Positions 22,543 to 40,879 of a stretch of DNA of 64,000 nucleotides are shown in pieces. The DNA lies in assembly GCA_016712285.1 (NCBI GenBank), contig JADJRK010000001.1, forward strand, positions 4,058,761 through 4,122,760, read 5' to 3'. This DNA is from Planctomycetota bacterium (GTDB taxonomy: Bacteria > Planctomycetota > UBA8742 > UBA2392). Under the pieces are notes generated by a model. That model ran no database searches. It had not been told where the DNA came from and saw nothing but the letters and a program-made list of their open reading frames with translations. Both the position numbers and the translations under genes were made by a program. Each line of letters starts with the position of its first letter. Within the stretch, counting starts at the first letter, position 1.

Positions 22543-23109
22543 GGCTGTCTCCTAATGCCCCGCACAGGGCTCCATGGTCTACTTCTGCTCAAACGGAAAT
22601 GGAAGGCGCATTATTCCGAACCGGGGCACCGGGGTAAAGACATACCACGACAACGCCGTGGTGCGGGCACCCTGCCCGCAGGCAGTAAGTGGCATCGCCT
22701 TCCAGGCGATGGCGTTGCAGGCGCTTCCAGCGCCTGTTGGCCACGGGCTGGAAGCCCGTGGAACGACATTGGCTAGAAGCCAATGCCACTACGACAAATT
22801 GCCACCACCCACGCCTTCGCGCTTGCGTGGTTTGTGGTGAGGGTTGTCCGGTTGAGCCCCCGGCGTCAGCTGGGGGCATTGGAATGTGCCGCAAACGACG
22901 CATGTTGCCGGTGCCGCGCCTGCCGGGGCTCTGAATTGTTATCGCTGCGATTCCCGGCCTTTACTGGCCGGGCTAAATTATGCATGCCCACGAAACGCGC
23001 TGCGTTTCGCGTGCGCGTTGCTTCGCAACCCTTCGGGCGCTGAACTGCCGCCACGTTGCGATTGGCGGCCGGAGCGATCCATGTCGCGCCCTTCGGGCGT
23101 ATTGGTTGG

Positions 23110-24192
23110 CTATCCGGTGCAGGCGAGCATGTTGTCCAGCGCTACCTTGGCCCAGCGCTTTTCTGTGGGGTCCGGCGTCACCGGCTCCCACGTTTCCAGG
23201 TTCTCCAGACAGTCGCGCAGGTCGCCGGTGCTGATCTTGAACATGTTCGGGCACAGGCTGCGCACCAGCGGAATCACCAGCCGGTCCGGGTGATGCACCG
23301 CGAGCCGGTGAATCATGTTCACCTCGGTGCCGATGGCGACCTTGTCGCCCGGCTTCATCTTGTTGATGACGTAGTCCTGGATGAACCCGGTGCTGCCGCT
23401 GAAGTCAGCTGCGGCGACGGTTTCCTGCGTGCACTCGGGGTGCACGATCACCTTGATGCCCGGGTGCTCGGCGCGGGCTCTCTGGACCATCTCGACAGAA
23501 AAGCGCGTGTGAACGTGGCAATAGCCCTTCCACAGGATCACGCGCGAGTTGGTGATCTGCGCCGGGGTCAAGCCGCCGTTGGGCAGCTTGGGGTCCCACA
23601 GCACAATCTGTTCGGGCGCAATGCCGTACTTGTTGGCGGTGTTGCGGCCGAGGTGTTCGTCGGGGAAAAAGAAGATGCGCTCGCCGCGTTCAAAGCACCA
23701 GTCGAAGACTTTGCCGGCGTTGCTGCTGGTGCAGACGATGCCGCCGCGCTCGCCACAGAATGCTTTCAGGTCGAGATCGCTGTTCATGTACACGACGGGC
23801 ACAACCTTGGCGGTGTTCACGAACTGGCCCAGTTCCATCCAGCTGGTCGCGACCTGCGGCAGGTTGGCCATGTCAGCCATGGGACAGCCGGCGTTGCGAT
23901 CGGGGTGATAGACAACCTGGTCGTCGCGGCAAAGAGTCGCGGCGCTGGTGACCATGAAGCGCACGCCGCAGAACACGATGTCGCGTGCCTTGCCGGCGTT
24001 GGCGGCGGCTTTGCACAGGTGGTAGCTGTCGCCGGTGATATCGCCGCAGGCATGCACGCCCAGGCGCTGGTAGTGGTGCGCGAGGATAAGCAACGAGTCG
24101 CCACGCTCACGCTTGAGCTCACGAATTCGCTCAATGTTCGCCGCTTCGTCTTCTTCGACGCGGATGGGGGATTGCATCACGGTGCCGGCCAT
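23110..24192 (-). CDS. nadA: quinolinate synthase A
   Basis: Conserved NadA blocks (CGVRFM, VVYMNSDLDLKAFCGERGGIVCTSSNA, VHPEC). Confidence 0.9.
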   Translation of the reverse strand: MAGTVMQSPIRVEEDEAANIERIRELKRERGDSLLILAHHYQRLGVHACGDITGDSYHLCKAAANAGKARDIVFCGVRFMVTSAATLCRDDQVVYHPDRNAGCPMADMANLPQVATSWMELGQFVNTAKVVPVVYMNSDLDLKAFCGERGGIVCTSSNAGKVFDWCFERGERIFFFPDEHLGRNTANKYGIAPEQIVLWDPKLPNGGLTPAQITNSRVILWKGYCHVHTRFSVEMVQRARAEHPGIKVIVHPECTQETVAAADFSGSTGFIQDYVINKMKPGDKVAIGTEVNMIHRLAVHHPDRLVIPLVRSLCPNMFKISTGDLRDCLENLETWEPVTPDPTEKRWAKVALDNMLACTG

Positions 24193-24333
24193 GGCTGCCT
24201 CCTGTGTCGCGACACCCTTGGTGTCAACTTCACACTCACATTAGAACATGATTGCGCCCTTATGGGAAGCGGGATGCGGCGGCCATCGCGGTGGAGGCGG
24301 TTTCGGTTGCGCGGCACCGGGCGTTTTCATGGA

Positions 24334-25602
24334 ATGATCGCTTCATTCGCCCGTTATAGAGAAGGCATGTTCCAGATTGGTGCGATCGCGGTCGTTGCTT
24401 TCAACGTGGTTGTGTGGCTCGCGCTGCGCAAGCGTCTGGTTGCGGCATTCCCGCGCCGTGGCAAATGGATTGCGCTTGCGACTATACCCCTGCTGCTGCT
24501 GTTGCTGCACCCCTCCATGCTGATGGCCGTCGGCGGCTGGTCCGGCATGCGCGGTTCGCGCGGTTTGTTCCCGGAATGGTTCCAGATGTTCTGCGTGGCG
24601 GCCCAGTTCGGCTGGATTTTCTACGGCCTGATGCTTGCGCCGTTTGGCGCATGGCGGTTGATGTTGCGGCTGCGCGCATTGGCGCGCCGCGATTCGGGCA
24701 CGCCGTTGCAGCGCCAGCTCGCCGACAGCGGCCGGCGCCGGATGCTCACCAGCGCGGCGCTGATGGTGCCCGCCGCAGCCATGGTGCTTGGTGGCGGCAG
24801 CGTGCTGGCATCGCGTGTGGTGCCGTCGGTCACGCGCATCCGGTTGCGAGTGCCGCGCGAGATGACCAGCCTGCACGGGCTGACCATCGCGCAATGCAGC
24901 GATGTTCACGTCGGCAGCTACATGGGCCGTGAGCGGCTTGCCGAAATTCGCGATGCCATGAACGCCACGGGTGCGGACTATCACGTCGTGACCGGCGACC
25001 TGGTAGACAACCACGTAAGCCAGATGGAACTTGCCACACAGTTTCTGCGCGAGCTGAAACCGCGGCGCGAATCATTCCAGTGCATGGGCAACCACGAGTA
25101 CATCGCGGCCCGCAGCGCCGACGTGAAGACCATTGTCAGCGGCCTGCATGAGACGGGCGCTTCGATGCTGATCGACGAGGCGCGCGTGATTCGTGTCGGC
25201 AGCGACCACTTCTGGATGGGCGGCATCGACTATCCCCGCAACCGCGACCAGAGCGTGAGCGGCCGCGACAACCACCGCGACAGCCTGCTGGCCACGCTGG
25301 CACAGATGAGCGACGATGGCGCGCCGCGCATCGTGCTGAGTCACCATCCGCGCGCCTTTTTTGACGCGCGCGAAATGCAGCTTGACCTGATGCTGAGCGG
25401 GCACACCCACGGCGGCCAGATCAAGCTGGGCCGCGTGGGCGATGCGGCGCTGACGCCGATCCTGCCGCTCGATTACTACCACAACGGGCATTACCAGCAT
25501 GAGGGCCGCAGCCTTTACGTGAACGCCGGCGCCGGCGGTTGGCTGCCAGTGCGCATCAATTGCCCGCCCGAGATCACGTTGATTGAACTGGTTTCAGCCT
25601 GA
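24334..25602 (+). CDS. membrane-anchored metallophosphoesterase paralog 1 (calcineurin-like, internal twin-arginine-like motif)
   Basis: Three to four N-terminal TM helices, GRRRMLTSAAL motif, then DVHVG..GDLVDN..GNHEY..SHHP..GHTHGGQ metallophosphoesterase motifs; the antisense-of-nadA 5' part of the 848-aa ORF is rejected. Confidence 0.75.
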   Translation: MIASFARYREGMFQIGAIAVVAFNVVVWLALRKRLVAAFPRRGKWIALATIPLLLLLLHPSMLMAVGGWSGMRGSRGLFPEWFQMFCVAAQFGWIFYGLMLAPFGAWRLMLRLRALARRDSGTPLQRQLADSGRRRMLTSAALMVPAAAMVLGGGSVLASRVVPSVTRIRLRVPREMTSLHGLTIAQCSDVHVGSYMGRERLAEIRDAMNATGADYHVVTGDLVDNHVSQMELATQFLRELKPRRESFQCMGNHEYIAARSADVKTIVSGLHETGASMLIDEARVIRVGSDHFWMGGIDYPRNRDQSVSGRDNHRDSLLATLAQMSDDGAPRIVLSHHPRAFFDAREMQLDLMLSGHTHGGQIKLGRVGDAALTPILPLDYYHNGHYQHEGRSLYVNAGAGGWLPVRINCPPEITLIELVSA

Positions 25603-26909
25603 TGCGCTACGTGATGGAGGAGTTGCTGGGCGGCATGATGGTCGTCTTCAACATTATCGGTTTTCTGGTCACCTTGCTGAACGTGCTGACGTTCCTGGCG
25701 CTGCGTCGCCGCATCAAGCTGGCGTTTCCGCGGCACAGCGGCTGGGCGACGCTGGGCGTGGGCATTCCGTTCTGGATCATGCTGCACCCGGGTTTGTTCC
25801 TGATGTTCGGCGGGATTTCCGGGTTGATGGCGATTCGCGATGATTCGCCCATCTGGTTCGGCATTGCTGCGATGGCCTGTCAGTTTGCCGCCTGGGTGTA
25901 TGGCGGCGGCTTGCTGATCAAGGGCGCGCCCGGCGCGCTGCTTGATGGCGGGCGCCGGTTGCGCCGCGTGCTGCGGCGCGAAAAGGCGGGCTCGCCGGCT
26001 GAGCAGCGGCTGGTCGATGAGGGCCGGCGCCGCATGCTGGCCAAGGCGGCGCTGACTGTGCCCGCGGCGATAGTCGCGACGGCAGCGGGCGGCGCGCTGG
26101 CGTCGCGCGTGGTCCCGCGCGTGACACGATTGCAACTGCCGGTGCGGCGCGAGTTGACGCAACTGCACGGCATGACGATTGCGCAGGTCAGCGACGTGCA
26201 CGTGGGCAGCTATATGGGCTGGGATCGGCTTGCCGAGATTCTGGGCGTCATGAACTCGACGAACGCCGACTGGTTCGTGATCACCGGCGACCTGATTGAC
26301 AACGACGTCGCGCAGCTTGAGTTGGCGCAGCGTTTCATCAACGGCATGAAGCCGAAACGCCAGACTTTCATGAGCATGGGCAACCACGAGTACATCGCGG
26401 CCCGCACCGGCGACACCCAGGGCATTGTGGCCGCGCTGAAAGACACGAAGGCGACGCTGCTGATCGACGAAGCCGAGAAGCTGAACGTCGGCGGCGCGCA
26501 CCTGTGGCTGGGCGCGATTGACCACCCGCCGCAGATGACGCTGCCGCGCCTGCACGACCGCAGCACCGAGGAAAGCCTGCAACAGGTGCTTGCGAACGTG
26601 CACGACGACGGCGCGCCGCGCATTCTGCTTTCGCACCACCCGCGCACGTTTAACGTGATTCGCGAGCACCCGGTGGATTTGACGCTGAGCGGCCACACCC
26701 ACGGCGGGCAGATCAAGCTGGGGCGCATCGGCGACTACGCGCTGACACCCGTGCTGCCCTTCGAGCACTACCACAACGGGTTCTATGAGCACAACGGCCG
26801 GCGGCTGTACGTAAACGCGGGCGCCGGCGGCTGGATGCCAGTAAGAATCAACTGCCCGCCCGAGATCACACTGGTAGAGTTGGTGCCGGCGCAAGCAACG
26901 AACGCCTGA
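25602..26909 (+). CDS. membrane-anchored metallophosphoesterase paralog 2
   Basis: Same architecture and motifs as paralog 1; start ATG overlaps the paralog 1 stop (TGATG). Confidence 0.8.
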   Translation: MRYVMEELLGGMMVVFNIIGFLVTLLNVLTFLALRRRIKLAFPRHSGWATLGVGIPFWIMLHPGLFLMFGGISGLMAIRDDSPIWFGIAAMACQFAAWVYGGGLLIKGAPGALLDGGRRLRRVLRREKAGSPAEQRLVDEGRRRMLAKAALTVPAAIVATAAGGALASRVVPRVTRLQLPVRRELTQLHGMTIAQVSDVHVGSYMGWDRLAEILGVMNSTNADWFVITGDLIDNDVAQLELAQRFINGMKPKRQTFMSMGNHEYIAARTGDTQGIVAALKDTKATLLIDEAEKLNVGGAHLWLGAIDHPPQMTLPRLHDRSTEESLQQVLANVHDDGAPRILLSHHPRTFNVIREHPVDLTLSGHTHGGQIKLGRIGDYALTPVLPFEHYHNGFYEHNGRRLYVNAGAGGWMPVRINCPPEITLVELVPAQATNA

Positions 26910-26983
26910 CCGTGGCGCACGGGGCCTGGGAGTCTGGTGCCTGACCCCTTTTGCCCCCCAACGCGACGGCAGGCACCGGCTAA

Positions 26984-27059
26984 CGGGCAAGGGACAAAAG
27001 AAAACCCGCGGACCCAACGACCCCTGTCACTGCGGCTCCGGCAAGAACTACAAATTGTG
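26984..27059 (+). pseudogene. SEC-C motif remnant (GPNDPCHCGSGKNYKL*) with no upstream gene body
   Basis: Translation matches the C-terminal SEC-C metal-binding motif of the TPR protein at 33640-33714 (GPNDPCWCGSGKKLKKCHGG); a stop lies ~8 codons upstream of the motif. Confidence 0.45.
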
Positions 27060-27268
27060 ACACACTGCCGTGGACTACGCCCACGCCGCGAAGTAACGCG
27101 GCAAACGCACGATAGAGGAAGGCGGCGTGAGGCGGCGTGACGCGGCGTTGCGTCGCGTTCACAGATATCCAAGTTTTTCTGCACAATCGACTAACACCCA
27201 ATTCGGGGCTGACGCAAAGGCATACTCCTGTCGTTATGGATTTTTCTCCCCTATTCGAGGATGCAAAG

Positions 27269-27919
27269 ATGGAAAGTACAGTTGATCCTGAAATTCAAGC
27301 TCTAACGCTCGTCGGGCGGGCCTTCGAGAGCTTGACAGACACCGACGCACGGCTGCGTGTTGTGAACTGGGCGATCGAGAAGTATGGCATTTCAGCTGGT
27401 TCGCACACGACACCGGCCATTGTTCCTGAGACCACTGCGCAGGAGCAGGTTGCCCAAGCTAGTTCGGTCGTGGAGTCCAACAAAGCAAAGCGTCCGCGGG
27501 GAGCCAAGGCTGACAAGCCCTCGCTAAAACACGATCTGACGTTCCATGGTTCAGGCGAGGTCATGCCTCCACTGCGAGAGTTCTTTTCAGCCAAGTTCCC
27601 CACTGGGCAAGCCAGCCACCCGGCTGCATTTGCAGTCATCGCCCATTGGTTGAAAGAAGTCGGTGGGACAGAAGAGTGCGGAATCGACGAAATGTACACA
27701 GCTTACCGCTGGCTAAAATTGAAAATGCCAAAGGTTTGGGCCCAGGCGTTCCGCGATGGAAAGACGAAACTCGGCTTCTTTGATGATGGCGGGTCTAAGG
27801 GCTGTTATCGCCTTACCCATATTGGGGAAGACGCGGTCATTCGGGGAGAACTCGGTAAGGGCTCCAACATTCTTGGTGACATACAAGCCGACCCGCCAGA
27901 AGTTGATGGAACAGAGTGA
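27269..27919 (+). CDS. hypothetical protein (lower-GC island)
   Basis: ORF in ~50% GC segment; start at MESTVDPE with a GAGGA RBS; alternative starts at 27137 or 27236. Confidence 0.45.
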   Translation: MESTVDPEIQALTLVGRAFESLTDTDARLRVVNWAIEKYGISAGSHTTPAIVPETTAQEQVAQASSVVESNKAKRPRGAKADKPSLKHDLTFHGSGEVMPPLREFFSAKFPTGQASHPAAFAVIAHWLKEVGGTEECGIDEMYTAYRWLKLKMPKVWAQAFRDGKTKLGFFDDGGSKGCYRLTHIGEDAVIRGELGKGSNILGDIQADPPEVDGTE

Positions 27920-28367
27920 TCGCCCATCTGTCGCCCCGAACAACGGGGATGATAGGGAGCATGGTCAGTGTCCCACGCAACAGGGGAAGAGCGTAAACGC
28001 TCATCCCCTGTTGTGTATGGTTTGACTGGCTACTTCTTGCACCTCGCCAAGAAGCACCAGGCTTGGCGGCCATAGTCTGCGGCGTGCAGTACTTTGCCAC
28101 TCCGCCAATGTTTGAACGACTTGCAAAACACCCACTTGAATCCCGGTGGTGCCGGGAAAGGACCGTTTTTCATTTTGCCTCCACAAATCAGAACTAGTCG
28201 CGGGCAATCTGGCCCGCTGAGTGCGCGCAATCCGTTGACGAAGAGCGTGTTGTGGAGTACCGTCTGAGTGTTCAGGTTCAGCGGTGGCAACAGCCATCGA
28301 TCCGGGAAAGCGCGTCCTTGACGCGTTTTCTCGCTTAAGGCGGATCCATACTACCTCGCTTTCCGGC

Positions 28368-28952
28368 CTATCTGGCCTTCTCCGTGAAGTCAACTGCCAT
28401 GGTTCTCAGCCAAGCGGACAGTCGCTCAGCTTCGGCCATGCTTAGGTCCATGGGCAGATTGTCGACCCGCACCACCCAGTCCGCTCGCAACGGGAAACTG
28501 TGCTGAAGCCCGCCGTACAATGGCCGAGATGACTGATGTTCAGCAGCGGAACTTGCCGCGGGACCCGCCTGCCGCTCGGACGACTTCCTTTTCTTTCCTG
28601 CCGCCCCCGAAATTCTCTCAGCAGCTGGGCTCGGCCTTCCCGCAGTGATGTTGGGTTGCCATCCCGTTGGGTTCGTCTGACGTTCCACGAAGTCCCGGAT
28701 TGCTTTGCCTACCCGGGCGGAGTAAGTTCGCAGCGACGGTGCGCTGACCTTGGGGTTGAGGTTTGCGAAGCGGCGAACCAGGACCTTCAGTTCCAAGCGC
28801 CTCACATCGCCCTTCTCTTGGTCATCCAGAATCGAGAATAAGCGTTCACAGGCCGACTTGATTGCCGCCGCCGTGACTGAGTTGTACCAGCCCTTGCTGC
28901 CCGCCAATTCCACGAACTCAAGCACATCCACTGTCGAGTATCGTTGGGTCAT
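28368..28952 (-). CDS. hypothetical protein (island)
   Basis: 194-aa ORF with a Lys/Ser-rich central linker; no recognisable motif. Confidence 0.5.
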   Translation of the reverse strand: MTQRYSTVDVLEFVELAGSKGWYNSVTAAAIKSACERLFSILDDQEKGDVRRLELKVLVRRFANLNPKVSAPSLRTYSARVGKAIRDFVERQTNPTGWQPNITAGRPSPAAERISGAAGKKRKSSERQAGPAASSAAEHQSSRPLYGGLQHSFPLRADWVVRVDNLPMDLSMAEAERLSAWLRTMAVDFTEKAR

Positions 28953-29171
28953 TTCCCACCTCCACCGTCAATTGTCTAATCCGCATAACCAAAAATCAAT
29001 GCCTTGCCGCGAGATTCTGTGACGAAGATAAATCAGCATCTGCATTGAGTTCCTGCGCCCGAGGGGTCACACGAGGTCAGGCGCATCGGCTGACGCGGTC
29101 CTACCCAAGAGCCAGCACTACTTGCGCAAGCGTTGCAGTCATCGGCTTGACCTGCGCCCCAGGGGGGAGTC

Positions 29172-29579
29172 TCAGGCTTTGGCGCCAGCCCACTCGATGG
29201 CTTGTTGTTGGTTGGCGAAGGTGTGGAACTGGGTGACCTTGCCTTTGTGGAAGGTGAAGACGTCGGCGGTGTGGCCTTCGCGCCATTCGGTTTCGGTCTT
29301 TAGCCTTACTCGTACGTGAACCAGCACGATGATCTTGTCGCCGGCGACGATGAACTGTTCCGGCTCGCAATTGCCTTCGGCCCAGGTTTCGCGCGCCTTG
29401 ATGATGTGGGCCTTGACGGCTTCGAGCCCGTGATATGTGCCGCCGTGCGGCGAATCAACAAACTCCGCCCGTTCGATCTGCGGGTCGAACGCTTTGATCA
29501 TCGCCTCAATGTCGCCCCGGTTGAGCGCGGCGTACACTTGCCGCAGCGTCTCCGTCTCGGCCGCCATTGGTTTGTCCAT
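29172..29579 (-). CDS. SnoaL-like / NTF2-like (ketosteroid isomerase-like) protein
   Basis: 135 aa; YAALNRGDIEAMIKAFDP...FTFHKGKV pattern typical of the SnoaL_2/NTF2 fold; upstream 5' extension rejected. Confidence 0.65.
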   Translation of the reverse strand: MDKPMAAETETLRQVYAALNRGDIEAMIKAFDPQIERAEFVDSPHGGTYHGLEAVKAHIIKARETWAEGNCEPEQFIVAGDKIIVLVHVRVRLKTETEWREGHTADVFTFHKGKVTQFHTFANQQQAIEWAGAKA

Positions 29580-30170
29580 GGTTCGCTCCGGCCGTAGTTG
29601 AACCAAGGCTGGAACGGCGTGGCAAGAACCCGGCAGGCTGCGGCGTTTTGGGTTTGCCGCTCGATGTATGCATGGCCGCCGGTCACTGCGGACCTTGCGA
29701 GTGGTTGCCGCAGGTCGCACGCATACCCGTCGCTGGCGCTCCGGGCTCTTGTTCTCCGGTTCGAACGCGGCGTCGTTGGCGTTGCTCCTGTGAAATCCCT
29801 GCACTGAATTACTGACACACCCACTTTGTCTTAACAATTGGGGGGTATGTTCTTCGCGACTGGCGAGGAATACGGCTATCAGCGCCCTTTTGCCACAGCC
29901 CCGATCCTTTCGAGCGACCCTTGGCGATGCCACCCCTCTCGCGCCCCCTGTGGGCGCGTCTTTGTTTTCCCGGAGAATCCATGACTCGACCGTTCCACCG
30001 CGTGCGGCTGCTTCGTTGCCTGGGCTGCGCACTGCCGGCCGGCTCTCGCCCCTTGCCCTTGCCGAGGGCCCCCTGATGCGCTGCCGCTACTCTCTGCTTC
30101 GTGTGCGCTCGTGTCGCCGCTCCCGAAAACTTGTGCGCCGTGACCCGGCCTTCCTGCGCAAGGGGGCAAA

Positions 30171-31499
30171 ATGACGCCCGACTGGATCCAGCAAGCCGAG
30201 AACTGGTGCGCGTCGGTCGAGAATTCGACAGCCGGCTTGATGCTGATCTCGGCGCTGGTGAGCCTTGGCAACGCTGCTGTGTTCTGGGTGCTGGTGCGTC
30301 GCATTAGGGGGGTCAGACCCCATTTTGCAGGCAAAATGGCGTCAGACCCATGGTGCTGGCTGATCGGCGTGCCGTACTGGCTGCTGCTGCTGCCGATGCT
30401 GGCGATGGCGGTTGGCGGGCACGGGGCCGCAGAGGCCTTTCACTCGTTGCTGCCGGCGCCGCTTGCTGTGGCGTGCATGGCGTTTCAGTTTGCGGTCTGG
30501 GTTTATGGCGGCGTGCTGCTGATTGGCCTGGTTGTGCGGGGTAGCTTCGGCGTCTTCGCCGGTGACCGCTTTTCACGAACAGAAACGGGGACAGTCCCTC
30601 GGCCTTCGGCCGGGGACAGTCCCCCCTCCGACAGTCCCCAATCGCGGCGCGACTTCCTGCGCAAAGCCGCGTTTGGTGTGCCTGCGGTGATTGTTACGGC
30701 TGCAGCCGCCGGCGGGGTTTGCAGCCAGTTGCCGCCAGTGATTCGGCGCGTGCAACTGCCGGTGCGCGCGCCCGGTTTGCGCGGCTTGCGGATTGTCCAG
30801 TTTAGCGACGTGCACATTGGCAGCTATCTTGAGCGTGACCGGCTGCGTGAGATCTCCGAGGCCGTGAACGCGCAGCGCCCGGACCTGGTTGTGTGCACCG
30901 GCGACCTGATCGACAACCGGCTTGAGCAACTGGAGTTCGCGCAGAACCTGCTGGGGCGCCTGAAGCCGCGCGTGGGCACGTTCATGTGCATGGGCAACCA
31001 TGAGTACATCGCGGCGCAGGGCGACGAGGCGGCTGTGAAAGCAGCCTACGCCGAGGCGGGCGCGACGGTGCTGGTGGACACTGCGATCAAGCTGCCGCTG
31101 GGGGGCTCGCACCTGTGGCTTGCGGGCACGGACTTCCCCGGCGCACCGGGGGGTTCACTGGGCGATCGGCCGAGCACAGCCGAAAGCATGGACCGTGTGC
31201 TGGCTGACATGCGCGACGACGGCGCGCCGAGGATTGTACTTTCGCATCATCCCAAGACATTCTTTGAAGGCCGCGAGCGGCAGATCGACCTGATGCTGAG
31301 CGGCCACACACACGGCGGGCAGATCAGCCTGGGGCGCATTCACGACCACGCGCTCACGCCCAACCTGCCCTTCGAGTTCTACCACAAGGGCCTGTACGAG
31401 CACGAAGGCCGGCGCCTGTACGTCAACAGCGGCATCGGAAGCTGGCTGCCCGTGCGCATCAACTGCCCGCCCGAGGTGACGCTGGTCGAGCTGGTGTAG
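30171..31499 (+). CDS. membrane-anchored metallophosphoesterase paralog 3 (twin-arginine motif SRRDFLRKAAFGV)
   Basis: Same architecture as paralogs 1 and 2; clear S-R-R-x-F-L-K Tat-like motif ahead of the phosphoesterase domain. Confidence 0.8.
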   Translation: MTPDWIQQAENWCASVENSTAGLMLISALVSLGNAAVFWVLVRRIRGVRPHFAGKMASDPWCWLIGVPYWLLLLPMLAMAVGGHGAAEAFHSLLPAPLAVACMAFQFAVWVYGGVLLIGLVVRGSFGVFAGDRFSRTETGTVPRPSAGDSPPSDSPQSRRDFLRKAAFGVPAVIVTAAAAGGVCSQLPPVIRRVQLPVRAPGLRGLRIVQFSDVHIGSYLERDRLREISEAVNAQRPDLVVCTGDLIDNRLEQLEFAQNLLGRLKPRVGTFMCMGNHEYIAAQGDEAAVKAAYAEAGATVLVDTAIKLPLGGSHLWLAGTDFPGAPGGSLGDRPSTAESMDRVLADMRDDGAPRIVLSHHPKTFFEGRERQIDLMLSGHTHGGQISLGRIHDHALTPNLPFEFYHKGLYEHEGRRLYVNSGIGSWLPVRINCPPEVTLVELV

Positions 31500-31589
31500 G
31501 GGCGACGCGCGCTTGTGCATTCGCGGGCGGAACAACGGCCCCTACCCGCGCGTTACAGGCTTGGCTATCGTTGCGCGCGGAGGCTTTCG

Positions 31590-32642
31590 ATGACTGTACC
31601 GGTCTATTTGGTGGCAGGGTTTCTTGGGTCGGGCAAGACGACACTGATGAAGCGGCTGCTGGAGCACCTGAACGCCCGCGGCGAAAAGCCGCTGGTGCTG
31701 ATGAACGAGTTTGGCGAAAGTAACATCGACAACGATTTGCTTGAGGGCAGCAACGCGCAGATGCGCGAGCTGATTGACGGCTGCATCTGCTGCACCAGCA
31801 AGACCGAGCTTACCAAGACGCTGTACGACATCGTTGCCAGCGACAAGCCCAGCAGCATCCTGATGGAAGCCACGGGGCTGGCTGACCCGGTCGAGATTCT
31901 GGACATCTGCACGCTGCCCAACCTGCTGGACAAGTTGACGCTGCGCACGATCGTCAGCGTGGTGGACGTGAACCGCTGGGGCAAGGTGGCGCAGGCCGAG
32001 GCGCTGATGAAGCGCCAGGCGAAGTTCGCCGACATCGTGCTGCTGAACAAGACTGACCTGGTGGACGCGGCGGTGTCAGAGCGCGTTGAGTCGGAGGTTC
32101 GCAAGCTCAACGCGCGCGCCAGCCTGCACCGCACGCAGCGCGCAGAAGTGGACATCGCGGGCATTCTTGACGCCGGCGGCACCGAAGTCGTCAACGACGA
32201 CAAAGACCACAGCCACTGCGACCACGAACACGACCACTGCGAACACACCGGCGACGGCCACGCACACCACCACCACAAGCACGAGCACAGCCACGACCAC
32301 TACCTCAGCCTGACGCTGCGCCCGCACGGCAAAGCCGACAAGGCGCGATTCAACGACTTTTTGAACGAGGGGTTGCCCGGCTTGCTGCGCCTGAAGGGTT
32401 TCTTGCAGGTGCAGGGCGTTGAGCCGCAGGCGATTGTGCAGTGGACCGCCGGCGACTGGGAGATGATCCCGCGGCCCGAGATCTTGAAGCCCAAGCCCGA
32501 CGTGCTGGTGTTCATCGGCGAAGAGCTGGACCACAAGCTGATCCGGCAAAGGCTGGAAGCCACGGGCCTGCACTTCCACGACGAGGGCGGGCACCACCAC
32601 CACGACCACGCCCACGAACACGCACACCACCATGAGCATTGA
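31590..32642 (+). CDS. COG0523-family metallochaperone GTPase (CobW/ZigA/YciC-like), histidine-rich
   Basis: P-loop GFLGSGKTT, GCICCT metal-binding motif, His-rich insert (DHSHCDHEHDHCEHTGDGHAHHHHKHEHSHDH) and His-rich C-terminus. Confidence 0.85.
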   Translation: MTVPVYLVAGFLGSGKTTLMKRLLEHLNARGEKPLVLMNEFGESNIDNDLLEGSNAQMRELIDGCICCTSKTELTKTLYDIVASDKPSSILMEATGLADPVEILDICTLPNLLDKLTLRTIVSVVDVNRWGKVAQAEALMKRQAKFADIVLLNKTDLVDAAVSERVESEVRKLNARASLHRTQRAEVDIAGILDAGGTEVVNDDKDHSHCDHEHDHCEHTGDGHAHHHHKHEHSHDHYLSLTLRPHGKADKARFNDFLNEGLPGLLRLKGFLQVQGVEPQAIVQWTAGDWEMIPRPEILKPKPDVLVFIGEELDHKLIRQRLEATGLHFHDEGGHHHHDHAHEHAHHHEH

Positions 32643-33714
32643 TTGGCTTGAAGCGGAATCTGCCATTGATGAACGCCTTGCGCTGCAGAAGCGGCGTGAG
32701 GCGCTGGAAGCCGCATTTGACGCCGACAACACCAACGCCGAGAACGCGCTCAAGCTGATTCTCACGCTTGACCAGCTTGGCGTGGCGCCGCAGGAAATCG
32801 CCACCCGCTGCGAACCCGCCTTCCAGGCCAACCCGCGCGATGCCGCACTCATGGCGTGGCTCAGCCAGCTCAGCTACCGGCTTGGCCAGCTCAAGATCTG
32901 CATGGTCACGGCCAAGCACGCAGCCACGCTCGACCCTGACGAGCCGATGGCCAATTTCACGCTGGCGCAGGTGCTGCTGTACTCGAAGGCCCATGAGGAT
33001 GGCCTGCGCTACGCCAAGCGCGCGTGGGATGTCGGCCACGCAACGCACTATCATGCGCAGATCGGGCGGCTTTACTGCATCCTGCTCGCGCGCCTCAAGC
33101 GCTGGGATGAAGCCTATGGATTCCAGAACGAGCGCCTGGCCGAGCGCCCGGACGATTCGCAGGCCGTGATCGACACCGCCGACCTGCTGCAGGAAATGGG
33201 CAAGCGCGAAGAGGGCGAAGCGCTTCTTGAGAAGGCGCACGAGAAGAAGCCCCGAGACACCGACCTGCTGTTTCGCATTGCCGTCGGCTACTTCGAGAAC
33301 GAAGACAACCTGACGGCGCGCCGCTGGGTGGACAAGCTGATTGACGCCGATGCCCAGCACCTGGAGGGCTGGAACCTGCGAAGCCAGATTCGGCTGAAGC
33401 TGGGCGACTTTGCGGGCGCGCTGGCGGACCACGAGATGATCCGTGAGCTGAGCAAGACGATGCCGCTGGACCAGTCGTTTCGCGCGACATGCCTTGAAGG
33501 CCTGGGTCGCAAGGAAGACGCGATTGCCGCGCTGAAGCTGGGGCTGGATGAAGTCAAGCAATGGCCTGAGCGCGTCAAGCAGTACAAGCAGCACCTGGAG
33601 CGGCTGCAGACCGTGCCGCCCGAGCAGCAGCAAAGACGCGGCGAGAAGCTTGGCCCGAACGACCCATGCTGGTGCGGCAGCGGCAAGAAACTCAAGAAGT
33701 GCCACGGTGGTTGA
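32632..33714 (+). CDS. TPR-repeat protein with C-terminal SEC-C metal-binding motif
   Basis: TPR-like helical repeats; C-terminal NDPCWCGSGKKLKKCHGG; 11-nt overlap with the COG0523 gene. Confidence 0.75.
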   Translation: MSIDWLEAESAIDERLALQKRREALEAAFDADNTNAENALKLILTLDQLGVAPQEIATRCEPAFQANPRDAALMAWLSQLSYRLGQLKICMVTAKHAATLDPDEPMANFTLAQVLLYSKAHEDGLRYAKRAWDVGHATHYHAQIGRLYCILLARLKRWDEAYGFQNERLAERPDDSQAVIDTADLLQEMGKREEGEALLEKAHEKKPRDTDLLFRIAVGYFENEDNLTARRWVDKLIDADAQHLEGWNLRSQIRLKLGDFAGALADHEMIRELSKTMPLDQSFRATCLEGLGRKEDAIAALKLGLDEVKQWPERVKQYKQHLERLQTVPPEQQQRRGEKLGPNDPCWCGSGKKLKKCHGG

Positions 33715-33922
33715 GTTGTGGCATGGGCGCCCCGCCCATGCACGGCGCACGGGCGAGGCACCCGTGCCACAGGTTGAAACTGCCTTACGTTCCAAGTCTG
33801 CGAGAAGCCTGCACGAGTGTCGTGCGGGCGCCTGTTGTTCCGGCGGGCCGGCGGCGTGGGCTGCGTGCAGCCACCACGTACCGTGTACGGCTTTGAAACC
33901 GCTGGAGCCTTGGGAATCGCCC

Positions 33923-33996
33923 TTGGATATAGCTCAACGGTAGAGCACAGGACTTGGAATCCTGGAGTTGCGGGTTCAAATCCCGTTATCCCAACC
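33923..33996 (+). tRNA. tRNA-Pro (anticodon TGG)
   Basis: D-arm GCTCAACGGTAGAGC, anticodon arm CAGGA-CTTGGAA-TCCTG, T-loop TTCAAAT; one acceptor-stem mismatch (2-71). Confidence 0.75.
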
Positions 33997-34330
33997 TCGC
34001 CCGCAAGGGCACCAGCCATTTAAGCTGGCTAAGCGGTCCGCAAGGGCCGCAACGAAAACCGGAAGGGGGATGTGCAGCGCAACGCCCGTTCTTGACCTGT
34101 CAAGAATAGCACAAGAAGAGACTCTGCGGCACGCGGATACCGGTCGGCGAGGAACACGCAGACGGGCCAACAGCCGCCGGGCCAACGCGGAAGGCAGGCG
34201 ATGAAGCAATGTCGCCGGTCGTCCGCCGAAGCCCAGGCGCTGCCGGCCCCAAGCGCCACTACCCCGGCCTCAAGCAGTGCCCCGTTTCAGAAGTGCGGCT
34301 GTGCGCGAATCGTCCCCCGGAAGGAAGTTA

Positions 34331-34467
34331 GTTGTCGGTATTCAGTTGTCAGTCTTCAGTTGTCGGTTGTCAGTGGCTGCTGTTTGGGTCGCGCTGTCGG
34401 CCGTTGGCAAGATCGCACACTCCGTCAACCGCTGCCGACAACTGACAACTGACAACCGACCACTGGC
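34331..34467. repeat. GTTGTC(A/G) heptamer-type repeat array: ~4 direct copies, 55-bp spacer, ~4 inverted copies
   Basis: gttgtcggtattcagttgtcagtcttcagttgtcggttgtcagtggc ... gccgacaactgacaactgacaaccgaccactggc. Confidence 0.7.
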
Positions 34468-34489
34468 AACTTTTCCTGCAACCCTATCC

Positions 34490-34501
34490 CGTTGACGTGT
34501 C
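34490..34501. promoter_or_regulatory. perfect palindrome TTGACGTGTCAA ~35 nt upstream of the SPFH gene start
   Basis: 12-bp palindrome; TTGACG half resembles a -35 box or operator. Confidence 0.35.
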
Positions 34502-34533
34502 AAGACACTTTGCCCCATCGAAAGGGGGTTGCC

Positions 34534-35844
34534 ATGATCCTGTACCGCAAGTTCAAGATTGCCGCGCACCAGCTTGGCCTGAAGTTCCGCGACGACCGCC
34601 TGCTCGACATCTACAAGGCCGGCGAGCACGTGGAGTTCGACCCGCTGCGCAAGCTGCGTGTCGAGAAGGTCAACCTGCGCGACGTCTACTTCAAGCACGC
34701 CGAGCTGGACGTGATCAGCCGCGAGCTGAAGCAGTACCCGAACCTGTTCAAGGTCGTGGAGCTTGCGGACCACCAGCGCGCCTTCGTGTTTGTCGACGGC
34801 CGCTTTGACCGCATCCTGGCGCCGGGCCTGCACGTGCTGGTGATCGCGCTGCGCAACGTGCGCGTTGAGGTTGCCGACATGCGCGACGCCGTGTACGCGT
34901 CGGCCGACATGGCCGGCATCCTGCGCGGCAACACGATCGAGGAATACGCCGACGTGCTTGAGCTGGAAGATAGCAAGCGCGCGCTGGTCTGGGTTGATGG
35001 CCGCTTCCGCATGGCGCTGAAGGCGGGCCAGTACCTGGTGTGGAAGGGCCTGCAGCGCGTGCGCGTCGAGTCGTTCGACGTGTCTGAGCCGCGCTTTGCG
35101 CACAAGGATCTCCCGGCGATCGTGAACAGCGCCGGCGCCAACGGCGCCCTGACGGTGTACCCGATCGAGCCGGGCCAGCTGGGCCTGTGGTTCAATGACG
35201 GCAAGCTGAAGGGCGAACTGGCACCGGGCGTGCACGCCTTCTGGACGGGCGTTTCCAAGCTCAAGGTCATGGTGACCGACCTGCGTGAGAAGACGTTTGA
35301 CATCGCAGGCCAGGAGATCATGACGCACGACAAGGTGACGCTGCGCCTGAACGCCTTGCTGACGTACCGCGTGGCCGATGTCGTGAAGTCGGTCAGCGTC
35401 GTGGACGACGCGCCGGGTGCCCTGTACCGCGAGGCACAGCTTGCCCTGCGCGCGGTGATCGGCAGCCGTGAGCTGGATGCGCTGCTCACGGACAAGGACG
35501 CCGTGGTCGAGGAGCTGCGTGAGGTTGTGGCACGCAAGGCCCCGGAGTTCGGCCTTGAGGTGAAGTCGCTTGGCATTCGCGACATCATCCTGCCGGGCGA
35601 GATGAAGGACCTGATGAACAAGGTCATGCAGGCTCGCAAGGCCGCCGAGGCCGGCCTGATCACGCGCCGTGAAGAGACGGCTGCTGCGCGCATGCAGGCC
35701 AACACGGCCAAGATCCTCGAGGGCAACCCGACGCTCATGAAGCTGCGCGAGCTGGAGGTGCTTGAGAAGATCGCCGAGAAGAGCAACCTGACGGTCGTGC
35801 TCGGCGACGGCGGCCTGAAGGACCGCGTGATGAAGCTGATGTAG
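34534..35844 (+). CDS. SPFH/band-7 (stomatin/prohibitin-like) domain protein with N-terminal beta-repeat domain
   Basis: C-terminal IRDIILPGEMKDLMNKVMQARKAAEAGLITRREETAAARMQANTAKIL band-7 signature; N-terminal internal repeats (VDGRFDRILAPGLHVLV, VDGRFRMALKAGQYLVW). Confidence 0.78.
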   Translation: MILYRKFKIAAHQLGLKFRDDRLLDIYKAGEHVEFDPLRKLRVEKVNLRDVYFKHAELDVISRELKQYPNLFKVVELADHQRAFVFVDGRFDRILAPGLHVLVIALRNVRVEVADMRDAVYASADMAGILRGNTIEEYADVLELEDSKRALVWVDGRFRMALKAGQYLVWKGLQRVRVESFDVSEPRFAHKDLPAIVNSAGANGALTVYPIEPGQLGLWFNDGKLKGELAPGVHAFWTGVSKLKVMVTDLREKTFDIAGQEIMTHDKVTLRLNALLTYRVADVVKSVSVVDDAPGALYREAQLALRAVIGSRELDALLTDKDAVVEELREVVARKAPEFGLEVKSLGIRDIILPGEMKDLMNKVMQARKAAEAGLITRREETAAARMQANTAKILEGNPTLMKLRELEVLEKIAEKSNLTVVLGDGGLKDRVMKLM

Positions 35845-35904
35845 GGGGCTGTCCTCGGGTTTGGGGACTGTTCCCGTCGTCGGCCGCTAAATGCAGCAAG
35901 ACTT

Positions 35905-35935
35905 GAGGAGAGCCGATCGGCTCTCCTCTCTTCAA
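35905..35935. terminator. bidirectional rho-independent terminator
   Basis: Perfect 24-nt palindrome GAGGAGAGCCGATCGGCTCTCCTC followed by TCTTCAAT. Confidence 0.7.
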
Positions 35936-35965
35936 TACAACTACCCGCAATGCCTGTGAGCTGCG

Positions 35966-36457
35966 TTAAGTCGGAAGTGCTGAACTGCAGAACACGCCAG
36001 ACCGGGGACCGATGTCGCCCAGGCGCCAGGACGCATTCTCATATCGCACGTAATACTCCGAAGCGTGAACGCGAGTCCTCATAGATTCAACCCACTGGAC
36101 GAAAATGGGCGCCAAATCAGCTGTTGGGATCAGGTCCTCTGGAAAGAACGACATCTCGATGAATGGCGTACCGTCTCTTCCGGCACCGGAGTACACCTGA
36201 AGCGTCTTGAACAAGGAATTGCCGCTCTTCAGCAGCATCCTGACGTGCCCCGCCCGGGCGGCACCGACGAGCGCTTCGGACTGCACCTGGGCGATCACGC
36301 TGCCATTGTGGTCCTCGGCCGACGAAACAGCGAATGTCTGGGTGAGTTCGGTGAGCAGTTCTGCGAGGCCATCCCAACTCGGTGCCAAAAAGTTGATGTC
36401 CCTGCACGACCCGTCATTGTCGCGCAGGGACATCTCGATTTCGGCATACCCGTTCAC
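35966..36457 (-). CDS. hypothetical protein
   Basis: 163-aa ORF convergent with the SPFH gene; no motif. Confidence 0.45.
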   Translation of the reverse strand: MNGYAEIEMSLRDNDGSCRDINFLAPSWDGLAELLTELTQTFAVSSAEDHNGSVIAQVQSEALVGAARAGHVRMLLKSGNSLFKTLQVYSGAGRDGTPFIEMSFFPEDLIPTADLAPIFVQWVESMRTRVHASEYYVRYENASWRLGDIGPRSGVFCSSALPT

Positions 36458-36478
36458 GACAGTTTCCGTGACCCCGAA

Positions 36479-37753
36479 TTAATTCCCGCGCTGCTGCTCC
36501 GCTTCGCCTACGCGCTTGAGCGCCAGCATGAACGCTGCGGTGCGCTTGCTGCACTTTTCCTGGCGCGCCATGGACTGCACATCCAGGTAGGCTTTGCGCA
36601 TCTTGCGCTCAAGCTCAATGTTCACGCGCTCTTCGTCCCAGTAGAACTGCGTAAGGTTCTGGCTCCACTCGAAGTAGCTGACCGTCACGCCGCCGGCATT
36701 GGCCAGAATGTCCGGAATCACCACGATGCCGCGCTCGTAAAGTTCTTCGTCGGCTTCGGGCATGGTGGGGTGGTTGGCGGCTTCAATGATCAGCGGCGCC
36801 TTGATGTTGCCGCAGTTGTCGGGCGTGATCACGTCGCCGATGGCAGCCGGGATCAGGCAGTCCACGGGCAGTGTCAGCAGGTCCTGGTTGTTCATCACGT
36901 CGGCGTTAGGAAAGCCCGCGACCGTGCGCTTTTCATTGAACCAGTCAAACAGCGCCGGGACGTCCAGGCCTTTCTCGTTGTACACGCCGCCCTTCACGTC
37001 GGTCACGGCGACCACCTTGCCGCCGCGCTCGTGCCAGAACTTGGCGCTGTAGCTGCCGACGTTGCCGAAACCCTGGATTGCGCAGGTCTTGCCCGTGATC
37101 GATTCGTTGCGCGACTTGTAGTACGCGTCGGCGGCAATCACCACGCCGTAGGCCGTGGCCGTGACGCGACCCTGGCTGCCGCCCAGCGTCACAGGCTTGC
37201 CGGTCACCACACCCGGGCTGTAGCCGCGGCGTGAAGAGTATTCGTCCATCAGCCACGCCATGACCTGCCCGTCAGTGCCCATGTCGGGCGCGGGGATGTC
37301 GCGCTGCGGGCCGAGCACGATGGCAATGCGTGCCACAAACTTGCGCGTCAGGCGCTCAAGCTCGGTCATGCTCATGTTCATCGGGTCGCAGGCCACACCG
37401 CCCTTGGCGCCGCCGAACGGAATGTCCAGCAGCGCGGTCTTCCAGGTCATCAGGCTGGCCAGCGCGCGCACTTCGTCTTTGTCCACTTCGGGGTGATAGC
37501 GAATGCCGCCCTTCCAGGGGCCGCGGGCGCCGTTGTGCTGGATGCGATAGCCCGTGTAGACGTGAATCTTGCCGCTGTCCATGCGCACGGGCACAGCTAC
37601 CGTGACTTCGCGAAAGGGTGTTTTCAGCACCTCGCGCAGCCACTCGGGCATATTGAGGCGGTCGGCGGACTTGTCGAAGAGCCCGTTGACGGCTTCGAAG
37701 GCGTTGTAGCGACCAGTAGAAGCTTTGTATCGACCTGTAACGCGAGTGGACAT
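36479..37753 (-). CDS. gdhA: Glu/Leu/Phe/Val-family glutamate dehydrogenase
   Basis: PFGGAKGG catalytic Lys region, nucleotide-binding GFGNVG. Confidence 0.9.
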   Translation of the reverse strand: MSTRVTGRYKASTGRYNAFEAVNGLFDKSADRLNMPEWLREVLKTPFREVTVAVPVRMDSGKIHVYTGYRIQHNGARGPWKGGIRYHPEVDKDEVRALASLMTWKTALLDIPFGGAKGGVACDPMNMSMTELERLTRKFVARIAIVLGPQRDIPAPDMGTDGQVMAWLMDEYSSRRGYSPGVVTGKPVTLGGSQGRVTATAYGVVIAADAYYKSRNESITGKTCAIQGFGNVGSYSAKFWHERGGKVVAVTDVKGGVYNEKGLDVPALFDWFNEKRTVAGFPNADVMNNQDLLTLPVDCLIPAAIGDVITPDNCGNIKAPLIIEAANHPTMPEADEELYERGIVVIPDILANAGGVTVSYFEWSQNLTQFYWDEERVNIELERKMRKAYLDVQSMARQEKCSKRTAAFMLALKRVGEAEQQRGN

Positions 37754-37875
37754 GCGGCCATCCTGAGTCGAGCTCGTTGCACAGCATTATCGGCTGTTTG
37801 TGTGTTGAACTGGACGTGAAACGCCGACGGGGGCGGACTATGCCTTTTCCGGGTTGATGCTGCAAAGGGCGGTTT

Positions 37876-38316: not shown

Positions 38317-38370
38317 AGTTTCCCTTCCGCCCGCAAGACGGCCGACCCCGACCAGTACACAGCAGCGGAC

Positions 38371-39582: not shown

Positions 39583-39719
39583 TGTGAACCCCCTCTGGCC
39601 GCAAAATCTAGAGCAAGAGAAGGTACCACATGGAAGGGGTGCCTGCGGCGAAACCGCCGACATTTCCGGTCGAACGAAGTGAGTGGCACCCCGCTATCGT
39701 CAGCAATGGAACAGGCCCC

Positions 39720-40876: not shown

Positions 40877-40879
40877 GAC

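Follow-up and report, generated by a model that had tools for sequence, protein, structure and literature searches.

Three genes for metallophosphoesterases, a gene for a His-rich COG0523 GTPase and a gene for a TPR protein with a SEC-C motif follow one another in a Planctomycetota MAG, which raises the question of whether the GTPase supplies metal to the phosphoesterases, as the initial annotation had proposed. The window analysed here is the whole 64,000 nt stretch of DNA containing them. The features observed in that annotation were all recovered, in every detail, and the Pfam E-values together with conservation in relatives exclude their having arisen by chance. Its interpretation fared unevenly: the paralogy, the common architecture and the Tat-type twin arginine stood, but the description of the architecture as unusual and the link from COG0523 to the phosphoesterases did not. 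Homology, architecture, conservation and gene order were observed directly, and we consider it fairly probable (roughly 0.6) that the locus consists of two separate modules lying side by side, a phosphoesterase array and a COG0523-TPR/SEC-C pair, without demonstrable functional dependence; their adjacency here would then reflect how genes are arranged locally within a single Planctomycetota clade. The phosphoesterases are further members of an already described, bioinformatically defined class, whereas the COG0523-TPR/SEC-C module is undescribed and narrowly distributed.

The phosphoesterase genes all lie on the forward strand and encode proteins of 422 aa (copy 1, 24334..25602, orthogroup A), 435 aa (copy 2, 25602..26909, orthogroup B) and 442 aa (copy 3, 30171..31499, orthogroup C; 100% identical to database protein P0001). 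Each matches Pfam Metallophos, with E-values of 4e-12, 2e-15 and 1.6e-17 respectively, and all have the same layout of transmembrane (TM) segments, RR and catalytic domain; the pairwise identities of 54% (copies 1 and 2), 45% (copies 1 and 3) and 52% (copies 3 and 2) bear out the proposal that they are true paralogs. An NJ tree places the members of such tandem arrays, which hold 3-4 paralogs, in four orthogroups. Copies 1 and 2 are indeed coupled at a TGATG junction, where the start of copy 2 overlaps the stop of copy 1 by 1 nt. The claimed phosphoesterase motifs are present in the alignment (SDVHVGSY, TGDL(V/I)DN, MGNHEYI, LSHHP and SGHTHGGQI), and the metal ligands of the binuclear site, D213, H215, D245, N276, H277, H359, H379 and H381, are all invariant among homologs. 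The AlphaFold model of copy 3 (P0001; pLDDT 89.3) has helices at residues 20-48, 60-93, 96-129 and 156-184, and an alpha/beta domain spanning residues 190-442. As to the substrate, a compound of the cell envelope containing a phosphodiester or pyrophosphate is probable.

In every copy exactly three segments are strongly hydrophobic; they are followed by the twin arginine (R134/R135, R142/R143 and R159/R160 in copies 1 to 3), a fourth, Ala/Gly-rich hydrophobic segment and finally the catalytic domain. The putative internal Tat signal of copy 1 covers residues 132-159 (24727..24810, forward strand, as are the next two) and reads DSGRRRMLTS plus AALMVPAAAMVLGGGSVLA; next to it on the C-terminal side comes SRVVPSVTRIRLRVPRE, and a VLA↓S site compatible with signal peptidase I is present. 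That of copy 2 covers residues 140-167 (26019..26102; DEGRRRMLAK followed by AALTVPAAIVATAAGGALA, with an ALA↓S site), both assignments being made from alignment and hydropathy. The equivalent in copy 3, residues 157-184 (30639..30722; QSRRDFLRK followed by AAFGVPAVIVTAAAAGGVC), is collinear with the N-terminus of a YkuE-type protein from Bacillus pumilus and has a weak Pfam match (E 0.0043, under the family's cut-off) to UCR_Fe-S_N, the TAT signal of Rieske proteins. All three copies and 107 of 119 homologs have four hydrophobic segments, and the distribution of K and R points to an N-out orientation in both; these segment counts and the N-out call rest on a purpose-written hydropathy script and on the K/R distribution. 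In the window copies there are 0-2 K/R in the N-terminus, 5-6 in loop 1, 0-2 in loop 2 and 8-13 in loop 3, the corresponding means in 115 homologs being 0.1, 4.6, 1.4 and 9.3.

It is rather unlikely, in our judgement, that the fourth segment is an ordinary TM helix inserted by Sec/YidC, with its arginines serving the positive-inside rule and Tat uninvolved. In the window copies its Kyte-Doolittle hydrophobicity of 1.7-1.9 does fall within the range of TM2 and TM3, and simple position-independent sums on the Hessa scale give it +3.2 to +3.5, values that certain TM2 and TM3 segments equal or exceed. Thirteen loci of the wider family also have a hydrophobic anchor without RR at this point, and therefore the domain can be attached to the membrane without a Tat motif. 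However, the RR is present in 119 of 120 homologs, the exception being truncated at the N-terminus, and in all 115 aligned sequences, with K never substituting and with flanks that fit the Tat consensus (RRx(L/F)(L/V)x(R/K)). The region moreover lines up with an N-terminal Tat signal of a bona fide type, the SRRQFLKGAA of the B. pumilus YkuE-type protein (285 aa; 33% identity, E 1e-32). The RR thus has the appearance of a real Tat motif, as originally suggested. Beyond TM4 there is a net positive stretch, with 3-5 arginines among 17 residues in each window copy and a mean of 4.6 K/R in 22 residues in the 115 homologs. For a helix that Sec inserts N-in/C-out, this runs counter to the positive-inside rule; such a stretch after the last helix has been shown experimentally to be a Sec-release feature in Rieske proteins and two other families (PMC5449189). 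Across the 115 homologs, A/G/S/T residues make up 59% of TM4 against 25-35% of TM1-3.

The phosphoesterases are hence predicted to be candidate dual Sec/Tat substrates, a reading of their sequences that follows the scheme of Tooke et al. (2017). TM1-3 would be inserted co-translationally by Sec/YidC with the N-terminus outside, and the fourth segment, Ala/Gly-rich and with RR before it and 3-5 arginines after it, would not be inserted by Sec. The catalytic domain would fold and bind its two metal ions in the cytoplasm before export by Tat, with RR and TM4 acting as an internal signal anchor, and the active site would finally lie at the periplasmic face. The A/V-x-A↓S site found behind TM4 in most homologs may allow cleavage to a soluble periplasmic enzyme.

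The initial annotation had called a Tat-like motif after a polytopic N-terminus unusual. This architecture was in fact described in 2017, when Tooke et al. (eLife, PMC5449189) listed 'polytopic YkuE-like metallophosphoesterases', a family defined by bioinformatics alone, as predicted dual Sec/Tat substrates with an N-out orientation, four TMDs, RR before TMD4 and basic residues after it. It is also widespread: of 48 loci with RR, drawn from many phyla, 26 have three upstream TM segments. The window proteins share the four TMDs, the N-out orientation, the RR directly before TMD4, the basic residues after it and the YkuE-type C-terminal domain. The TMD4 of the published family is weakly hydrophobic; the TM4 described here is rich in A/G/S/T-type residues, yet has Hessa sums resembling those of some TM2 and TM3 segments. 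They differ in that PMC5449189 names Firmicutes, Bacteroidetes and a Nitrospirae example and does not mention Planctomycetes, and in that the window genes belong to tandem arrays. In the families for which dual targeting has been shown experimentally, namely the actinobacterial Rieske, 5-TMD MoCo and polyferredoxin proteins (PMC5449189), the logic is the one proposed here, with Sec-inserted helices and then a last helix distinguished by RR, low hydrophobicity and C-terminal positive charges. Their N-terminus is inside, however, and the Sec helices preceding the Tat helix are even in number, whereas the window proteins are N-out with three, and the catalytic domains are unrelated. With an invariant RR, a basic stretch past TM4 and a possible signal peptidase site in more than 100 homologs, the present proteins would make clean test cases for the polytopic YkuE family, so far the one class of Sec/Tat dual-targeted membrane proteins known only as a prediction.

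The short forms of COG1408, Bacillus subtilis YkuE (established as a Tat substrate in work that PMC5449189 cites) and Escherichia coli YaeI, have a homologous catalytic domain, and have RR at the equivalent position, the alignment with the B. pumilus YkuE-type protein beginning at SRRQFLK. YaeI and LpxG are the best NCBIfam matches of all three copies. YaeI (NF008460) scores 108.4, 103.8 and 123.1 bits against a cut-off of 188, and so is homologous rather than an equivalog. That the phosphoesterases act as lipid A pyrophosphatases of the LpxG or LpxH kind, their catalytic domain lying in the cytoplasm, appears highly improbable: although LpxG is among the two best matches (E 1.6e-28 to 1.6e-32) and a homolog, P0035, carries that name in its source database, the scores of 99.9, 109.1 and 113.1 bits are far under the LpxG (NF033458) equivalog cut-off of 350, the charge distribution puts the domain outside the cytoplasm, and for just one lipid A step, a set of 3-4 paralogs in each genome would be odd.

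Downstream of copy 3 lies the gene for the COG0523 G3E GTPase (31590..32642, forward strand, 350 aa), the likely start of which is the ATG at 31590, in agreement with database protein P0159 (350 aa). It matches cobW (PF02492, 163.9 bits, E 3.7e-48) and CobW_C (PF07683, 45.8 bits), and the Walker A sequence GFLGSGKTT, GCICC and NKTD are conserved in alignments. The reported His-rich inserts correspond to a conserved linker rich in His and Cys and to a tail that is rich in His and ends in HEH. Its best PDB sequence match is YjiA (4.6e-27), and it falls under every NCBIfam equivalog cut-off. It resembles the COG0523 metallochaperones (YjiA, YeiR, ZigA, ZagA, CobW, Nha3, and eukaryotic ZNG1 with its client METAP1) in its GTPase motifs, GCxCC, CobW_C domain and His-rich stretches, the last being present in about 40% of the family (PMC2770081). 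We infer that it is a GTP-driven metallochaperone, with zinc the probable metal. Unlike other COG0523 proteins, however, this subfamily is confined to a Planctomycetota clade, comprising about 40 clusters at least 53% identical before a drop to 32% identity, and its gene always precedes, and mostly overlaps, a TPR/SEC-C gene.

That second gene (32632..33714, forward strand) encodes a 360 aa TPR solenoid protein (Pfam TPR_19) and, as had been noted, overlaps the COG0523 gene and ends in a SEC-C zinc knuckle (residues 342-359, 33655-33708, forward strand; PF02810 at 34.1 bits, the cut-off being 20.4). The overlap measures 11 nt. The ligands C346, C348, C357 and H358 are nearly invariant in the family alignment. 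The AlphaFold model (pLDDT 90.6) is all-helical over residues 3-326, and its structural matches are generic TPR superhelices. As in other SEC-C proteins (the SecA C-terminus, YchJ-type proteins and some MetAPs), the C-terminal PNDPCWCGSGKKLKKCH fits PF02810 with conserved Cys/His ligands, but here a flexible linker connects the knuckle to a TPR solenoid some 325 residues long. The family is narrow, with 38 clusters; the TPR partner in one relative (L084) does not have the SEC-C motif.

The constant partner of COG0523 is this TPR/SEC-C gene, the pair being intact in all 15 contexts (the window, L001 and L081-L096). In 10 of 12 genomes the overlap keeps the sequence CCATGAGCATTGATTGG, down to relatives in which COG0523 is 53% identical. 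The two genes are translationally coupled, and the TPR/SEC-C protein would be cytoplasmic, a putative dedicated adaptor or client of the GTPase. No paper describing a TPR/SEC-C partner of COG0523 was found in the library searched. For bacterial COG0523 proteins few clients or partners are known (PMC11672702), and a subfamily consistently paired with a TPR/SEC-C gene offers a concrete candidate. ZNG1 docks on a zinc finger of METAP1; to assign the SEC-C knuckle a comparable role would be purely speculative.

The association with phosphoesterases is of a different kind, and the claim that COG0523 metallates them is not borne out by gene neighbourhoods, conservation of which is no greater than background synteny. 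Only four contexts, the window and three from close relatives, have a phosphoesterase gene immediately before COG0523 in the same orientation, and the NJ tree shows that the adjoining paralog varies, being C in the window, D in L001 and B in L089 and L091. An inversion or insertion separates the two in five more. The block from HAD to COG0523 is rearranged in L081, L082, L083 and L090 (inverted in L081-L083), with the breakpoint exactly between the array and COG0523, and in L092 two DUF4139 genes are inserted at this point. Among contexts long enough for absence to be judged (L084/85, L086-88, L093 and L094), no phosphoesterase was present within 10 kb of the COG0523-TPR pair in L084-L088 and L093, or in 7.6 kb upstream or 10 kb downstream of it in L094; relatives with 53-57% and 71% COG0523 identity keep the pair with no phosphoesterase nearby. 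Conversely, of 80 loci bearing phosphoesterase homologs, COG0523 is found within 10 kb in one, and the TPR/SEC-C gene is absent from 78. NadA, GDH, Rrf2, YjbQ, HAD, Rhomboid and NrdD are also conserved around the locus.

On this evidence it is unlikely that the phosphoesterases receive their metal in the cytoplasm, before export, from COG0523 alone or from COG0523 together with the TPR/SEC-C protein, for instance under zinc limitation. The direct adjacency in four contexts speaks for it; in the window, this same-strand arrangement, together with the failure to detect a terminator in the 90-nt spacer between copy 3 and COG0523, makes co-transcription likely. In the five separated genomes, moreover, both modules remain within 10 kb of each other (about 7-10 kb in the rearranged ones). 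Both kinds of protein involve bound metal, Tat substrates must bind metal before export and so might plausibly need a cytoplasmic insertase, and METAP1, the one well-defined eukaryotic COG0523 client, is a binuclear enzyme, as are the phosphoesterases (PMC11672702). Against this, besides the neighbourhood data, no paper in the library searched ties COG0523 to phosphoesterases or to TPR/SEC-C proteins, and the Zur box expected under this proposal did not appear: no AT-rich palindrome or inverted repeat was found in the promoter regions of the window (a generic form was sought, from which a Planctomycetota Zur motif may differ), no obvious Zur-like box was seen by eye upstream in relatives, and the neighbours of COG0523 are not classical Zur-regulon genes. 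The attraction of the original finding, a metallochaperone feeding phosphoesterases, is therefore not supported. Quite unlikely, too, is the more elaborate possibility that the pair forms a dedicated cytoplasmic maturation system for putative Tat-exported phosphoesterases, with COG0523 loading the binuclear site and the TPR/SEC-C protein holding or escorting the precursor, tethered to the membrane, until metal has been loaded. The TPR/SEC-C protein would then be a Tat proofreading chaperone serving a metalloenzyme of non-redox type. If true, this would give a bacterial COG0523 protein a defined client set, and G3E GTPases their first link to Tat export. A weaker version, in which the two proteins make up a new metallochaperone module of two components, is much more likely.

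Several smaller elements were identified on the forward strand around the two modules. A terminator-like hairpin lies between the TPR/SEC-C gene and a tRNA-Pro gene (33807..33829 and 33923-33996, respectively). Upstream of copy 3 there is another, GC-rich with a T tail (29940..29968), conserved in L001 and L081-L083. It is followed by two small open reading frames: uORF1 (29981..30076, 31 aa), which is preceded by GGAG and the stop of which overlaps the start of uORF2 (TGATG), and the Arg-rich uORF2 (30076..30174, 32 aa), the stop of which overlaps the ATG of copy 3 (ATGA). The homologous uORFs of L081 and L083 differ from those of L082 mostly at third codon positions, and a C-terminal motif in uORF2, R(W)RDPxxxR(R/K), is common to the window and L081-L083.

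All of the features described in the initial annotation are present in the window, which derives from a Planctomycetota MAG. The three metallophosphoesterase genes, hereafter copies 1 to 3 (24334-25602, 25602-26909 and 30171-31499, all on the forward strand), have canonical Metallophos motifs in common and pairwise identities of 45-54%, with copies 1 and 2 overlapping at TGATG. Copy 3 is followed, after a spacer of 90 nt, by the gene for the His-rich COG0523 GTPase (31590-32642, forward), which overlaps by 11 nt with that of a 360 aa TPR protein with a C-terminal SEC-C motif (32632-33714, forward). The COG0523 start at 31590 is the likely one, in agreement with the matching database protein P0159; 100% identical database proteins exist for copy 3, the COG0523 protein and the TPR protein. 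Upstream of the selected copy 1 ATG, the reading frame stays open through a very Arg-rich extension, MGSGMRRPSRWRRFRLRGTGRFHG (24262-24333), with the shorter start being more likely because ortholog alignments begin only at around residue 5-12 of copy 1. An 848 aa mechanical ORF containing this gene (23056-25602, forward) runs antisense through nadA (23110-24192, reverse), and was dismissed as an artefact of high G+C content.

Each phosphoesterase begins with three strongly hydrophobic segments, followed by a long basic loop, with a twin arginine (RR) at its end, and by an Ala/Gly-rich fourth segment. The distribution of Lys and Arg residues is alike in the three copies and, as an average, in 115 homologs, the means for the latter being 0.1 in the N-terminus and 4.6, 1.4 and 9.3 in loops 1, 2 and 3 respectively; this pattern gives a predicted N-out topology, in which the catalytic domain would lie outside the cytoplasm. 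In the same homologs, Ala, Gly, Ser and Thr make up 59% of TM4 versus 25-35% of TM1-3, and the 22 residues downstream of TM4 contain a mean of 4.6 Lys or Arg residues. The N-terminal three-TM domain is fast-evolving and is no separate module: among 1.84 billion representative proteins searched with a profile, 11 clusters matched, each made up of phosphoesterase-length proteins or fragments thereof. Within this domain (30171-30640 in copy 3), N34, P75, P95 and Q106 are invariant or nearly so among the 115 homologs, and such conservation of polar and proline residues in a tiny family hints at a role beyond anchoring.

This architecture corresponds to that of the "polytopic metallophosphoesterases of the YkuE family", which emerged from the search of Tooke et al. 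(2017) for candidate dual-targeted N-out proteins (PMC5449189). The class is defined there by four TMDs, an N-out orientation and a TMD4 that is immediately preceded by a conserved RR, has a positive apparent delta-G and is followed by a basic stretch, features that match the Sec-release mechanism proved for Rieske proteins and two 5-TMD families; the YkuE family itself is a bioinformatic prediction in that study, which makes no mention of Planctomycetes. The window proteins agree with the class in their predicted topology, RR and basic stretch after TM4; approximate delta-G sums for TM4 are positive (+3.2 to +3.5), with some TM2 and TM3 segments scoring similarly. They extend a known class, one defined by bioinformatics, with new members. 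A survey of 80 loci from many phyla places them in a wider context: a motif script located the catalytic DxH in 61, the other 19 being left out, and of those assessed, 48 have an RR at the expected distance and 13 lack it. Three TM segments precede the RR in 26 of these 48, and none in nine, which are of the YkuE/YaeI type.

Across the aligned homologs the RR is invariant, with Lys never substituted, in the context RRx(L/F)(L/V)x(R/K). A 285 aa YkuE-type protein of Bacillus pumilus, the N-terminus of which is MKQLSRRQFLKGAA, aligns collinearly with copy 3 (33% identity, E 1e-32), its N-terminal motif falling at residue 158; the internal RR and an N-terminal twin-arginine signal peptide are therefore homologous. 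From the sequences and the cited work, we infer that Sec/YidC would insert TM1-3, while the catalytic domain would fold and bind its metals in the cytoplasm; RR and TM4 would then be recognised by Tat, which would bring the domain to the periplasmic side of the membrane. Signal peptidase I might subsequently cleave at a candidate site after TM4, where there are small residues at positions -3 (V/A/G, residue 182) and -1 (A/G/S, residue 184), with G181 at -4.

YaeI and LpxG are the top curated matches of the phosphoesterases, with scores well short of the respective equivalog cut-offs, and the ligands of the binuclear site are all invariant in the 115 homologs. The AlphaFold model of copy 3 (pLDDT 89.3) has four long helices preceding an alpha/beta domain. 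No PDB entry matched copy 3 by sequence, and a Foldseek search of the PDB with its model returned generic metallophosphoesterase folds only (e.g. Mre11, MPPED2 and Rv0805), none of them a close solved structure.

A neighbour-joining tree divides the phosphoesterases into four orthogroups, A to D, with copies 1, 2 and 3 belonging to A, B and C respectively. The arrays of related genomes have three or four members, the four of locus L001 being in gapless tandem. The DNA of about 3-3.3 kb between copies 2 and 3 (26910-29900), in which the G+C content falls to 0.59, is absent from both L001 and L082. It contains an ORF with no family or Pfam match (27137-27919), another with a match to phrog_2602 and none to Pfam (28368-28952, reverse) and a SnoaL_2 gene (approximately 29172-29600, reverse). 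A phage or mobile origin, for which the sole pointer was the match of one ORF to a PHROG family of unassigned function, was rejected. Different insertions occupy the same site in other relatives, including a sigma70/WD40 protein in L089 and 4 kb in L002, making the array a hot spot for insertions.

The genes downstream of the array form a unit of their own. The COG0523 protein has the full set of GTPase motifs, a GCICC motif, a His/Cys-rich linker and a tail ending in HEH; its nearest solved relative is YjiA. The linker (approximately residues 204-240, nt 32200-32320) is more than random low-complexity sequence: ten orthologs with overall identities of 61-85% have eleven of its positions in common without exception, namely D206, H207, C210, D211, H212, H214, H231, H233, H235, D236 and H237, which suggests a defined second metal site. 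The subfamily is sharply bounded, with around 40 clusters at least 53% identical before a fall to 32%, and the TPR/SEC-C family is small, with 38 clusters among 5.8 billion. The TPR protein, modelled as a solenoid (residues 3-326) joined by a flexible linker to a zinc knuckle, has an invariant N-terminus, M-x-I-D-W, as well as conserved internal motifs; a structure search with the model found generic TPR superhelices only. Its gene is directly 3' of that for COG0523 in all 15 contexts examined, and the junction CCATGAGCATTGATTGG, which encodes both the HEH-stop of one protein and the MSIDW of the other, is retained in 10 of 12 full junctions, including those of relatives with COG0523 proteins only 53-57% identical. 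A metagenome scan for further TPR/SEC-C contexts yielded only four loci, two of them too short for judgement. The pair is a conserved functional unit, undescribed and narrowly distributed; a literature search found no paper linking COG0523 to TPR proteins, SEC-C or phosphoesterases. Few clients of bacterial COG0523 proteins are known, according to a 2024 review (PMC11672702). The pair would probably function separately from the phosphoesterases, with COG0523 as a GTP-dependent metallochaperone and the TPR/SEC-C protein as its own adaptor or client.

The initial annotation had instead proposed the phosphoesterases as candidate enzymes for metallation by the COG0523 protein under zinc limitation. 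In the window, L001, L089 and L091 the gene immediately 5' of COG0523 is indeed a co-oriented phosphoesterase gene, and L092 has the same orientation with two DUF4139 genes intervening; the neighbourhood in other relatives gives this proposal no support. The block of COG0523, TPR, tRNA-Pro, Band7, GDH, Rrf2, YjbQ and HAD genes (within 31500-40942) has the window orientation in L089, L091 and L092, and is inverted in the sister MAGs L081-L083 and otherwise rearranged in L090. These rearrangements of about 9 kb leave COG0523 7-10 kb from the phosphoesterases, with one breakpoint exactly at the boundary between array and COG0523. No phosphoesterase is present within 10 kb of the pair in L093, L084/85 or L086-88, nor in the sequence that L094 offers, 7.6 kb on the upstream side and 10 kb on the downstream side, and L001 is the only one of 80 loci at which COG0523 lies within 10 kb of a phosphoesterase homolog. 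The paralog adjacent to COG0523 varies between genomes, being C, D or B. Furthermore, the window-type order is accompanied by conserved synteny of the unrelated NadA, GDH, Rrf2, YjbQ, HAD, Rhomboid and NrdD genes, and the adjacency is therefore not above background. We judge the linkage to be one of gene position, with a functional connection improbable. A 430 aa ORF without a Pfam match (38371-39663, reverse) separates Rrf2 from YjbQ; it may represent a further lineage-specific insertion, as nothing intervenes between Rrf2 and YjbQ in L089 and L092.

No Zur- or Fur-like palindrome was found in a promoter position, either by inspection of the intergenic DNA preceding copy 1, copy 3 and COG0523 and of the corresponding regions of seven relatives, or by an inverted-repeat search and a scan for AT-rich palindromes (7-1-7, 6-3-6 and similar). 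In a search for riboswitches and other known RNAs 5' of copy 3, Rfam identified only tRNAs at gathering thresholds and nothing in 29600-30200 at E values up to 1. Terminator-like hairpins are found at 29940-29968, upstream of copy 3, and at 33807-33829, with none detected between copy 3 and COG0523, which suggests that copy 3, COG0523 and TPR may form a single transcription unit in this genome.

The interval from the first hairpin to copy 3 contains two short upstream ORFs (29981-30174), uORF1 (31 aa, ending RPLPLPRAP) and the Arg-rich uORF2 (32 aa), the latter resembling the 5' extension of copy 1. They are chained to one another and to copy 3 by overlaps of TGATG and then ATGA. The chain is also present in L081 and L083, and partially in L082, where the uORF2 C-terminus RWRDPKFLRRR is kept; L001 has neither. 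Differences in uORF1 between L081 and L082 fall mostly at third codon positions, suggesting that it is translated.
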